This document shows, one piece after another, positions 43,401 to 49,400 of a stretch of 64,000 nt of DNA. Each line of letters begins with the position of its first letter. Within the stretch, counting starts at the first letter, position 1. The DNA lies in the NCBI GenBank assembly GCA_020137815.1, contig CM035355.1, forward strand, positions 1,860,001-1,924,000, read 5' to 3'. A program made the position numbers and the translations under genes. The notes under the pieces were generated by a model that saw nothing but the letters and a program-made list of their open reading frames with translations, did not search any database and had not been told where the DNA came from. This DNA comes from Hormiphora californensis (taxonomy: Eukaryota > Animalia > Ctenophora).

Positions 43401-46400
43401 GGGGGGGGGGGGGGTCCAGCTAAGCTAACGGCCAAAATCAGGGTACCTTTAGCTTTTTTTAGCTTTTTTTAGCTTTTTTAGCCTTTTTTAGCTTTTTTTA
43501 GCTTTTTTTAGCTTTATTTAGCTTTTTTTTAGCTTTTTTAAGGCTAAAAAAAGCTAAAAAAAGCTAAAAAAAAGCTAAAATTGAGTTTTTAGTGGATTCA
43601 TATAGGTTCGAATCCCGCTGACGCCAAATTTTTTAAACTTTTATTATAACGTTTTATAACGTTTTTTGAACTTTTTTAAAACTATTTTTATCAAATTTGA
43701 ATAATATTTTTATCGAAAAAATGTCTCCAGAAAATGGCAGTAGGGGTGGATACAGAAATTGCTATGTATGGACATAAACGGTAGATTATGGTAAAAAATG
43801 TGCAGGAAATGAACAAATGCAGTCAATAGACATCCGGAAGGATGAAAATTTAATGGAAAAGTGTCAAGATGAATGCTGAAAAAACATAAAAAGTAGGGCT
43901 AAAAAAAGCTAAAAAAAGCTAAAAAAAGCTAAAAAAAGCTAAAAAAAGCTAAAATAAAAAACGCTATCGACCAAAATCAGGGTATCTTTAGCTTTTTTTA
44001 GGGCTGGACCCCCCACTCCCTACTTCCCCATACTCCCTACTCCCTAAATAATACTCCTTACTCCCTACTCCCTAAATAATACTCCCTACTCCCTACTCCC
44101 CTACTCCCTACTCCCCTACTTCACTACTCCCTACTCCCTACTCCCTAAATAATACTCCCTACTCCCTACTTCCCTACTCCCCTACTTCACTACTCCCTAC
44201 TCCCCTACTTCACTACTCCCTACCTTCCTACTTCCCCATACTCCCTACTCCCATAATCCCTACTCCCTAAATAATACTCCTACCTCCCTACTTCCCTACC
44301 TTGGATATGAATCCCCATGCTCTGGTACACCATCTTCATCACATATCGATAAGTCAACTCCACACAACCCTTCCCCAGGCAGTATGGGGGAAAGATTAGG
44401 AAGACCACATCCATAGCAGCAGCCAGCCCAGAGAGATATGGGTCACCGGGGAAGCGTTCCAGAACAAACACAGAGTAGCTAGTTGTTACGGCGATGAAGA
44501 GGTTGCCACAGAGGAGGGTTACATAGGCAGCTGATGGGATACTGAAACAGAGGAGGGTTACATAGGCAGCTGATGGGATACTGAAACAGAGGGAGGGTTA
44601 CATAGGCAGCTGATGGGATACTGAAACAGAGGGAGGGTTACATAGGCAGCTGATGGGATACTGAAACAGAGGAGGGTTACATAGGCAGCTGATGGGATAC
44701 TGAAACAGAGGAGGGTTACATAGGCAGCTGATGGGATACTGAAACAGAGGGAGGGTTACATAGGCAGCTGATGGGATACTGAAACAGAGGGAGGGTTACA
44801 TAGGCAGCTGATGGGATACTGAAACAGAGGGAGGGTTACATAGGCAGCTGATGGGATACTGAAACAGAGGGAGGGTTACATAGGCAGCTGATGGGATACT
44901 GAAACAGAGGGAGGGTTACATAGGCAGCTGATGGGATACTGAAACAGAGGAGGGTTACATAGGCAGCTGATGGGATACTGAAACAGAGGAGGGTTACATA
45001 GGCAGCTGATGGGATACTGAAACAGAGGGAGGGTTACATAGGCAGCTGATGGGATACTGAAACAGAGGGAGGGTTACATAGGCAGCTGATGGGATACTGA
45101 AACAGAGGGAGGGTTACATAGGCAGCTGATGGGATACTGAAACAGAGGGAGGGTTACATAGGCAGCTGATGGGATACTGAAACAGAGGAGGGTTACATAG
45201 GCAGCTGATGGGATACTGAAACAGAGGAGGGTTACATAGGCAGCTGATGGGATACTGAAACAGAGGGAGGGTTACATAGGCAGCTGATGGGATACTGAAA
45301 CAGAGGGAGGGTTACATAGGCAGCTGATGGGATACTGAAACAGAGGAGGGTTACATAGGCAGCTGATGGGATACTGAAACAGAGGGAGGGTTACATAGGC
45401 AGCTGATGGGATACTGAAACAGAGGGAGGGTTACATAGGCAGCTGATGGTATACTGAAATAGAGGGGGGTTACATAGGCAGCTGATGGGATACTGAAACA
45501 GAGGGAGGGTTACATAGGCAGCTGATGGGATACTGAAATAGAGGGAGGGTTACATAGGCAGCTGATGGGATACTGAAATAGAGGGAGGGGGTTACATAGG
45601 CAGCTGATGGGATACTGAAACAGAGGAGGGTTACATAGGCAGCTGATGGGATACTGAAACAGAGGGAGGGTTACATAGGCAGCTGATGGGATACTGAAAC
45701 AGAGGAGGGTTACATAGGCAGCTGATGGGATACTGAAATAGAGGAGGGTTACATAGGCAGCTGATGGGATACTGAAACAGAGGAGGGTTACATAGGCAGC
45801 TGATGGGATACTGAAATAGAGGGAGGGTTACATAGGCAGCTGATGGGATACTGAAACACTATTGGGAGGACGTTAGTTTAAACTACTCGTATCATTTGGA
45901 GAAATATAGAGTCAGAGAAAGTGACGATTTAACTTATTCAGGCTGTCTCTGGAATATATGAATAATACAACAGCTGAAGATCTTACTTGAAAATGTAGGA
46001 GGCGGGATAGAAGAGGGGTGTAGAAGCACAACCGTACATGAATATGAATCTTACTTGAAAATGTAGGAGGCGGGATAGAAGAGGGTGTAGAAGCACAACC
46101 GTACATGAATATGAATCTTACTTGAAAATGTAGGAGGCGGGATAGAAGAGAGGTGTAGAAGCACAACCGTACATGAATATGAATCTTACTTGAAAATGTA
46201 GGAGGCGGGATAGAAGAGGGGTGTAGAAGCACAACCGTACATGAATATGAATCTTACTTGAAAATGTAGGAGGCGGGATAGAAGAGGGGTGTAGAAGCAC
46301 AACCGTACATGAATATGAATCTTACTTGAAAATGTAGGAGGCGGGATAGAAGAGGGTGTAGAAGCACAACCGTACATGAATATGAATCTTACTTGAAAAT

Positions 46401-49400
46401 TTAGGAGGCGGGATAGAAGAGGGGTGTAGAAGCACAACCGTACATGAATATGAATCTTACTTGAAAATGTAGGAGGCGGGATAGAAGAGAGGTGTAGAAG
46501 CACAACCGTACATGAATATGAATCTTACTTGAAAATGTAGGAGGCGGGATAGAAGAGGGGTGTAGAAGCACAACCGTACATGAATATGAATCTTACTTGA
46601 AAATGTAGGAGGCGGGATAGAAGAGGGGTGTAGAAGCACATCCGTACATGAGGATCAGAATTAAAACTGCATCAAGCTCCTGAAATTAAACAATATTATT
46701 GTTGAGGTAGATATTATGTCGGTTTGATAAGGTTTGATAAGGTTTGGTGGGTCCAAAATTTTAAATAACTAGATAAGTATAATTACTGCAGTCCGACCCC
46801 GATTTACTCTGTAAGGCCAATGTTCTGACCACGATTCCCGCGTGCTCGCCGCTCAAGCCAATGCTCTGACAGGATTTACCGGCTTGCTCGGGGGAAAGGA
46901 TATTGCCCGATAAGCCGGGGTCCGACTACAGTAAAGTCGGATTTTTTGAAGTTGTCACCCCAAAATGACCGCGCATGTGAAATTTATCAATTTTGACGCG
47001 CACACCACACGTTAACATGTGATGTGACGCACAAAAACTTTCCGCGCATGAAAAGGGGGTGACAACTTCAAAAAATCCGACTTTATAGGAGGAAGATCTA
47101 TTTTTTTTACAATTACCGATATGAACGCCTCCTGTTTAAAGACCCAGAACACCAATAGTGAGACAAGGGTGGGTACAATAAAGTTACACATATCCCACGC
47201 AAAGTTACTCAGCCAGTATACTTCCGCACTTACACCTGGAGGGGTAATTAAATTAGGAGTTATTTCTATTTCCAGATTTCTGGCAAATATTTTTCTTTTT
47301 TATGTGACGTCTTCGAGCTAACATTTGTCACTCCCTGTACAAATTACCAGCCCAAACATTTATTTTATTTCTAGCTCTTCATATTATAATAATTATTGTC
47401 TGTAGTAATAAAGCTATAATGCAACAGTCCCAATTAGGATACAAAGAACTTTCCCAAACTTCCATACCCGCACAAAACTGAAGATGTTTAGCGTTGCTCC
47501 TCCTCTCTGCCACCAAATAAACAACAAAACTCGTGGGCACGAAACTCAACCCTACTATGATAAAGATGCTGACCATTATGGGGGTTCCCTGCTGTATGTA
47601 CTCGTGGGAGGTGGACTGGGCTGTCTGGTTCATAGCCTGGAAAAAGGGGTGTTAAAACTCCATATTTGGTCATCACGTGACATCCCATATTCGGTCAACA
47701 CGTGACATCTCCATATAATTTGGGCAACCAACCTGTGCAGCCACAGTAATGTGATGTTTTATTCCCGCGTTCTTCAGTTCCATGTTCCTCAGTGTATTAA
47801 TGGCAGTAGGTTGGGCATGGTAACCCTTGTTCAAATACCAGCTCTTGGCCACAGGCCTCAGTGCGGTGTAGGGGGATGAGTATTCCGAGATGAGATCGTG
47901 TCGAGTGTCGTCTACTGTGAAACCGATGTACCTGTTGAGAGTGAGATATTGTTATTGTTTTTTTTTATTACTATTAATATTAATTGTTAGATTTGTTAGC
48001 ACTTTAGTGGTCTTAAATTTAGGAATTGGCTCAGGTTAGCATCCTATGCAAGGGGACCTAATATGGACAGCGCTTGTTGAGTAAGCAGTGGTATACTCAA
48101 CAAGACAGCACAGGGGAAATCATATGTTTCCGAAATACCTTTTTAGGATGTATTCAGGTTGGGTAATCATGAGATAACTGCTGAAGTTAGTGCCCGTAAC
48201 ATTAAGAAACACATCCCCACTGTGGGTCTGGAATCCATGCCGGGGAAAGGGTATCTTAGGTCCTCCTTGCTCCAGAGGAATGGAATAAGATAGATCACAC
48301 ATGGGGAACATGGGTACAAACTCCCTCTTTACTTCCCATCTCTTTGCCAGTCTGATTATCTCTGAGGGGTATGCTTCGCAGGTCTCGAAGCCCCCCTCAG
48401 GGCCGGGTTGGGGTGCTGGTCCACTGTAGCTGTCTCCATATGTTGCACCCGCCAGCAAGGGACTGGTCAAATGGTACCTTCTGCAGGAGGGATTTAGTGT
48501 TGAATAAGAAATGTAAGTAATAGTTTTATGGGAATCCATATCTAACTCCTGTACTGCGAACATGTTGTGTTCTAACTTCTAACCCTCCTTTCAGGGGCGC
48601 GGTGAGAGAGGGTCGAGCAAGGAAAACTGCGACCTATCATTGAGTGTGTTCATGTTCATGAAACAAAGCAATCATACAGAACAGCATATACTATCCTTGG
48701 CTAGTTTTTAGCTTACCCCTTTCAAGGGTGTTCTAGCCTCAAAGGGAATGTAGTTTGGATAATCGAACATTGAGAGGGAGAGAACCCGTTCCTTGTAGGA
48801 GTCTTGTACCGGTACCTGCCAAGTTGATTGCCATGGCTGCAGCTATAAATAGCGCTGGGAGAACCACCTGCGGGGAATTGTATCAGTATAACCATATATG
48901 GGCATGTCACGTGATCTATGACGTCATAGGTCACGTGATTTTAATAGTTCCGTGAGAATTGAGAACCACCTGCGGGGAATTGTATCAACATTTATTATCA
49001 TAATAATGGAATAGAAATAGACTAGAAATAAGAGTTAGAAATAAGAGTTAGAAATAAGAGTTCAAGTATTAATTCAAATCCTAACCTGAGCGAAGACGCC
49101 CTTCTTGTCCCTCTTGGCGTAATGCCATCTCTTTAAAAAGAGTGCTCTGAACTGCTGGAAGTGCAGTTTCCATCCCGTGTTCAACAGTTTGTCAGTGCTT
49201 GTAAATAGGGGCGAGGTACTGGCTCCTGATGCCAACTAGATACAACAGAGGATTTGTGATATTAGTGAAAATTAATGAAACAAATTAAAACATAATAGTC
49301 AGACATCAGAATCATTTCAAATTAATTAACAATCACCTGGCGATACGATAAATCGGAAGAACAATCATCGGATGATTCATCATTATTATTGGCATGATTC

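Follow-up and report, generated by a model that had tools for sequence, protein, structure and literature searches.

How a cell could pick one correct pair of splice sites in an intron made almost entirely of copies of its own boundaries is the question raised by an ABCA1/4/7-like transporter gene of the ctenophore Hormiphora californensis. The gene occupies 28490..63525 on the minus strand of a stretch of 64,000 nucleotides (nt) taken from GenBank assembly GCA_020137815.1 (contig CM035355.1, positions 1,860,001 to 1,924,000), which we call the window and to whose numbering all coordinates refer; the 5′ part of the gene lies beyond the window end. An earlier sequence-only reading had claimed that one intron of this gene carries two arrays of splice junctions, about 10 donors by about 34 acceptors, and this was confirmed. 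We consider it probable that the intron is a two-sided “mirage” minisatellite, that the first donor is joined to the last acceptor, and that the normal protein is still made. The arrays are then likely harmless clutter, and a regulatory function is unnecessary for the explanation.

Tandem Repeats Finder placed the acceptor array at 44508-45858 (period 40, 34.1 copies, 97% matches) and the donor array at 45980-46651 (period 68, 9.9 copies, 98% matches). On the minus strand, the assembly contains 10 GTAAGA donors, with the GT at 46596 in the first and at 45986 in the last, and 34 TTTCAG acceptors, whose first exon base runs from 45850 to 44541. These signals are kept in every copy (GTAAGA in 10/10 donors, TTTCAG in 34/34 acceptors). 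Donors are spaced 68 nt apart seven times and 67 nt twice (n = 9), and the 33 acceptor spacings comprise 40 nt (19 times), 39 nt (13 times) and 42 nt (once). The last donor is separated from the first acceptor by a core of 136 nt (45851..45986) with an ACTAAC branch-point motif at 45872-45877, which we infer to be the ancestral short intron. In total the intron measures 2,055 nt, with a repeat share of 93.4%. It is preceded by an 83-nt exon (46597..46679; 27 protein letters) ending at donor 1, and followed by a 242-nt exon (44300..44541; 15 protein letters at the start of its translation, GIHIQ at the end) that ends at the donor AAG|GTAGGG.

Each donor unit takes about 55 nt from the exon end and then about 13 nt of intron, made up of GTAAGA and some intron-like bases; in each acceptor unit, TTTCAG is followed by the exon's first 33 nt, with seven sequence variants among the units and no GGG run on the sense strand. 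As in mirage minisatellites, the boundary that the tandem units cross is a genuine exon-intron boundary of the ABCA gene. Because the acceptor unit has this composition, acceptors 2-34 are preceded by exon codons: their pyrimidine tract and branch-like TGTAAC are the copied codons Y-V-T-L-L-C, and acceptor 1 alone has a true intron context, with ACTAAC. The pyrimidines that the sequence-only reading had seen in the acceptor unit are indeed present, but in acceptors 2-34 they derive from exon codons (T-L-L-C) and not from the intron. This holds for acceptor 34 (44542..44562), the one required for the canonical protein; its first 30 nt recur at 13 of the 34 acceptors, its first 40 at no other. 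A short homology (TAAC..CCTCC) links the end of the intron with the start of the exon, and TGT is shared at the unit joint.

To see which sites can be joined productively, all 340 donor-acceptor pairs were translated, and 338 of them met a stop. Donor 1 with acceptor 34 gives the canonical protein, whose junction is covered by 23 protein letters, and donor 1 with acceptor 33 is open and in frame with 13 additional amino acids. The count bears out the earlier claim that the canonical protein needs the first donor and one of the last acceptors; of the view that proximal acceptors are in frame, the pairing of the first donor with a late acceptor stands, but the open frame is limited to acceptors 33 and 34. 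Donors 2-10 retain an in-frame stop: once donor 1 is read through, the translation goes F-K-stop, so the frame shift that had been supposed is not by itself the cause of their failure. When donor 1 is paired with acceptors 1-32, the stop falls 179-1,331 nt before the next junction. Stops so far ahead of a junction trigger nonsense-mediated decay (NMD) in mammals, and in the ctenophore mis-spliced products with premature stops would presumably go to NMD as well.

The identity of the host gene was established from its exons. Human ABCA7, ABCA4 and ABCA1 are the matches of the downstream exon (E values of 6e-12 to 9e-10), and a profile built from 19 long homologs gave colinear hits from 63525 to 28541, covering model positions 596-2168 of 2193; the N-terminal 595 or so model positions are outside the window or unmapped. 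The traits of the ABCA subfamily, two membrane domains and two nucleotide-binding domains, are present and colinear, with best matches to ABCA1/4/7, and the arrayed intron sits in the second membrane domain. With GT-AG boundaries, 17 junctions close in frame, and five stretches with larger model gaps were left unclosed. The 13 mapped exons range from 83 to 242 nt, the two exons flanking the arrayed intron being the extremes, and the introns next to these two measure 437 nt and up to 4,781 nt. A homolog search with an 83-aa exon query among longer proteins gave no match. Two candidates were discarded: a metagenome locus (L001, one weak 16-residue locus from 176 stretches scanned) was not used, and P0123 (12 stretches) was a spurious match to a bacterial PKD-like repeat protein.

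The gene appears to be maintained. Among the 40 best-supported of 135 variants, 22 fall in mapped exons, 19 of them synonymous and 3 non-synonymous; in the runs of organism A only (described below), exon variants are 12 synonymous and 3 non-synonymous. Since exon variants are mostly synonymous, purifying selection is indicated in the species where both samples carry the arrays, and the variant pattern points to an ABCA gene under such constraint. Acceptor 34 also looks, by its motifs, like the native acceptors of this gene: its branch-like A lies at -17, a TAAC/TAAT/TGAT-type motif occurs at -13 to -21 in 9 of the 16 other scanned acceptors, and one of these nine has an identical TGTAAC.

Are the arrays present in genomes, or only in the assembly? 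Four of 12 listed sequencing runs were compared, namely X2 and X6 (two samples of organism A, each from its own study), X9 (organism B) and X12, over about 1.5 units per array with the core (45790-46075) and over the upstream exons (46570-48950). X2 is possibly the source sample and hence not independent, whereas X6 is independent. Short-read contigs of both X2 and X6 cross unit-to-unit junctions and loop back 68 nt, and in X6 the donor-junction contig has a depth of 1,495 vs 110 for the core. By the most conservative summed depth, a diploid genome holds about 67-79 acceptor units in X2, 89-129 in X6 and fewer than 2 in X9; summed depth is a rough measure and no copy number, and other assumptions give several hundred units. 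It does exclude a single copy in X2 and X6 and suggests that 34 is not an overcount. These depths suggest large arrays in both organism A samples.

Stutter of the assembly could be suspected from the 39/40 and 67/68 variants, which are changes in short C runs typical of long-read error, and from an array copy number that is the assembly's own. Such an artefact had been named beforehand as what might undo the finding. Yet short-read contigs assembled for two samples, each from a different study, have the unit-to-unit junctions and the 68-nt loops, and even conservative depths set X2 and X6 far above X9, so we regard an artefact as scarcely credible. X2 has no contig on the core, but such holes prove nothing. 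X2, X6 and X9 differ in their depths and in the core junction, with contigs giving no allele lengths, and one X6 haplotype departs from the core at 45864, just after an AG, into unrelated sequence; the region is therefore structurally variable.

Organism B offers a view of what may have preceded the arrays. In X9, the donor contig (depth 74.5) and a 246-nt contig with one acceptor (depth 76.7) are both at single-copy depth, and the 68-nt loop is not listed among the contig joints. On one side of its acceptor the 246-nt contig continues directly into unique exon sequence; on the other, it meets the donor side again beyond about 113 unlike letters. From this single donor and one-acceptor contig we take the intron to have been short at first, with the core as what is left of it. 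The arrays thus probably arose by recent expansion of a short intron that is older than they are, and intron growth by junction duplication, one of the possibilities offered by the sequence-only reading, gains support from the single-copy donor and the one-acceptor main contig of organism B. Speaking against a clean split between the two organisms, X9 also has contigs, at depth 17-26, in which one acceptor unit adjoins the next (45797-45852). A low-copy acceptor duplication may be segregating there, possibly an early stage of the array, or the run may be mixed.

The fourth run, X12, apparently of RNA and about 80-90% alike, has a contig on 46597-46646 whose loose end begins exactly at 46597. 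The 30 letters of this loose end, read by hand, translate into 10 protein letters as codons of the next exon; they depart from the window at four letters, in each case at a third codon position. X12 is likely RNA from a diverged lineage despite its species label, with a normal junction there. The junction at 46597 therefore makes the intron position older than the arrays and is silent on the arrayed allele. Three X12 pieces, all less than 90% alike, fall on 46570-48950 and none on 45790-46075, which has no bearing on expression. At the exon start the synonymous codons of X12 differ and do not spell a TGTAAC-type branch motif; a codon-spelled branch motif, missing in X12, may be why the duplication was tolerated in the Hormiphora lineage.

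These observations can be combined into a mechanism for the two-sided mirage. Each array would have begun as one local duplication across a junction, seeded by the short homology between the intron 3′ end and the exon start, and would have grown by unequal exchange or slippage. The direction of duplication would leave one complete exon on each outer side, and therefore only alleles spliced at the outer sites would survive. The outer sites would be chosen as the nearest across the flanking exons of 83 and 242 nt, by exon definition or by scanning for the first donor; use of acceptor 1 would make an exon of 1,551 nt instead of the 242 nt obtained with acceptor 34. In humans, the sites nearest across the exon are favoured once introns exceed about 250 nt (PMC9225289). 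The Y-V-T-L-L-C codons might help acceptor 34 by placing a branch-like motif and a pyrimidine tract before the last AG. No stable structure emerged when the last seven acceptor units were folded as RNA (z +1.52, with 188 of 200 shuffles folding equally well), so a choice of the last acceptor based on structure is unsupported.

Several points weigh against this explanation. Use of the outer pair is predicted from the genomic sequence, and the sole RNA-like contig, that of X12, may lack the arrays. As many as 11 of the 17 inferred introns of the gene are shorter than 250 nt; pairing across the intron may therefore be the default here, picking the inner pair, which at 136 nt would be favoured under such pairing yet is non-productive. 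Acceptor 1 also has the better branch-point match, ACTAAC against the TGTAAC of acceptor 34. In the human work, the preference for the upstream 3′ splice site was reduced, not reversed, under exon definition (PMC9225289). Finally, the putative seed homology comes from one allele and an X6 loose end.

Other explanations start from the same sites and assign them other fates. Array length might act as a rheostat, with more decoys drawing splicing to inner sites and so, through premature stops and NMD, setting the ABCA dose. The stops in 338 of the 340 pairs, with those of donor 1 and acceptors 1-32 well ahead of the next junction, would suit this, as would the large arrays suggested by depth in X2 and X6 and the differing core-to-array junction of X6; in human ABCA7, a donor-containing variable number tandem repeat (VNTR) affects splicing according to its length, including retention of one unit (PMC5954066). 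But organism B has no donor array and few acceptor copies, junction copies are not enriched over the background of the ABCA gene (see below), and decoys are little used or unused in the F7 and lancelet cases as far as these are described, and we therefore hold such tuning to be unlikely. A larger combination, in which a short intron became a 2-kb intron made of junctions, the ancestral acceptor was bypassed, one of 340 pairs is found by cross-exon definition and array length tunes escape from NMD, deserves equally little confidence as a whole.

Alternatively, the arrayed allele might be broken or strongly hypomorphic, if donor 10 were joined to acceptor 1 by intron definition, the arrays stayed in the mRNA and the mRNA was degraded. 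The core does keep a full donor, ACTAAC and an acceptor, its 136 nt are within the intron sizes of the gene, and one of the X6 haplotypes has a different 3′ core end. We think this improbable, given arrays in both organism A samples, a majority of synonymous changes among the exon variants, and mapped junctions that close in frame. Less convincing still is stepwise removal by recursive splicing through the repeat units, which the sequence-only reading had put forward and which was not borne out. Acceptor units offer a branch-like motif, pyrimidines, an AG and a weak TAT|GTAACC 19 nt past the AG. Ratchet points, however, require an AG followed immediately by GT, which regenerates a donor, and recursive splicing is unsupported because neither unit contains AG|GT, within units or across the joins of two units in tandem. 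Any acceptor would regenerate AA|TATC without a GT, and splicing at the internal GT would throw the frame off by leaving 19 nt behind. Its probability is very small.

Three further acceptors of the gene have an upstream copy (48867, 30743 and 30008, all on the minus strand). At 48867-48969 two acceptor copies lie 102 nt apart with stops in the exon's frame between them, and at 30743-30861 two copies lie 118 nt apart with intervening sequence that shifts the frame. At 29978-30078, a 38-nt unit in about 2.7 copies supplies acceptors 30046 and 30008, of which the distal alone closes the frame well, the 38 nt between the copies being frame-shifting. Junction copies were found at 4/21 acceptors vs 118/720 other AG in the gene span (P = 0.76) and at 1/17 donors vs 82/671 other GT (P = 0.71), and copies at intronic positions near junctions numbered 14/128. 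No enrichment over background was found among these 38 junctions, four of which were read by eye, against a background that includes large satellites; the small sample makes this evidence against a strong bias only.

Repeats adjoin splice signals in other introns of the gene as well. An array of GTAGGGA-type 7-mers (44011-44299 and 43120-43387, minus strand) follows the donor AAG|GTAGGGA of the 242-nt exon and is split by an element of about 600 nt with inverted ends (about 43400-44010); the G runs of this array could act as intronic enhancers for that exon. Pyrimidine-rich arrays with repeated, branch-point-like CTAAC/CTAAA (32793-33363 and 50511-50981, minus strand) reach ABCA acceptors. Large foldback-like inverted repeats of short tandem units also lie in ABCA introns (54933-55371 with 57720-58274, 56465-56760 and 31151-32104), and a GGCGCC-rich satellite block covers about 34500-39200.

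Repeats of this type are known from other animals, and the comparisons below follow the cited sources as far as their text was available. In amphioxus, mirages are tandem copies of an exon-intron boundary that vary in length and reportedly leave splicing undisturbed; their hosts are Adh3, the globin genes BflGb6 and BflGb9, troponin C and PGBD5 (PMC3087553, PMC3902484). As in those genes, the units described here span the boundary and keep the AG or GT, a 5′ as well as a 3′ boundary can be copied, the unit size lies within the 10-72 bp quoted for Adh3, and several cases occur per gene. Mirages of Adh3 reportedly also vary in length somatically. The amphioxus globin mirages affect one boundary per gene with 3-6 units, whereas in the ctenophore two arrays face each other in one intron and the acceptors number 34.

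The human parallels concern the choice of site. In intervening sequence 7 (IVS7) of human F7, a 37-bp VNTR presents 5-9 identical donors of which the first alone is used, and related donor-spanning minisatellites are found in 6-16, CBS IVS13, LMNB2 and PDGF (PMC1557585). Both F7 and the present intron repeat identical donors into the intron with the first one productive, as predicted here. However, the F7 unit is made of 4 exon nt and 33 intron nt, vs about 55 and 13 nt here, and an acceptor array is not described for F7 in the accessible text. In CBS 844ins68, an intron/exon junction is duplicated and the distal of two acceptors yields normal mRNA (PMC1802585, PMC2630376), much as the distal acceptor would be canonical in the ctenophore; CBS, however, has two copies and chooses through G runs between the sites, unlike the 34 acceptors here, whose units lack GGG. 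The sequence-only reading had suggested an unusual selection of splice sites, a suggestion that holds only in part, since F7 IVS7 and CBS 844ins68 make the same choice. The human ABCA7 VNTR lies in intron 18 of a gene of the same family, contains a donor, and leads to a premature stop when a unit is retained (PMC5954066). Unlike the present arrays, it belongs to an intron in the first nucleotide-binding domain, has a 25-bp unit starting at GT and affects the donor side only. The two are of independent origin, and an effect of length is shown for ABCA7 only.

For Hormiphora itself, the genome report describes high heterozygosity and 13% tandem repeats, and junction arrays are unmentioned in the text examined (PMC8527503). 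A literature search on acceptor-side arrays, mirages and ctenophore splicing found no ctenophore case and no two-sided case, most subscription journals being outside its coverage. The repeat type is thus already known; what sets this intron apart is that its two ends are both amplified, that the host is a ctenophore, that the acceptor derives from codons and that the related organism B probably shows the short-intron state.

The locus extends mirages outside the bilaterians, likely with a low-copy stage visible in a related organism, and shows the possible birth of a working 3′ splice site from coding sequence. As the inner and outer pairs are near-identical but opposite in outcome, it could tell cross-exon from cross-intron pairing. 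If both length tuning and cross-exon choice were true, the arrays would be a natural titration of exon versus intron definition in an early-branching animal lineage.

Elsewhere in the window, a 51-nt repeat on the plus strand (12193-12430) contains several copies of CAG/AAG|GTAACG and may be a donor-side mirage of another plus-strand gene, next to a candidate exon. Two long open reading frames on the plus strand, antisense within ABCA introns (40043-41098 and 60946-62826), resemble 7-transmembrane receptors when their translations are read by eye, and in the latter LDL-receptor-like repeats stand ahead. Nested genes are described as common in a ctenophore genome (PMC8527503). Close to each other lie a cathepsin (823-2064), which has 63% identity to a cluster including a Mnemiopsis gene, and HID1 (9552-9962), an exon of which shares 86% identity with a cluster holding the HID1 of Mnemiopsis leidyi and Bolinopsis microptera. 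The Mnemiopsis matches of cathepsin and HID1 bear near-adjacent locus numbers (G014682 and G014680), which suggests that the cathepsin-HID1 microsynteny is conserved.

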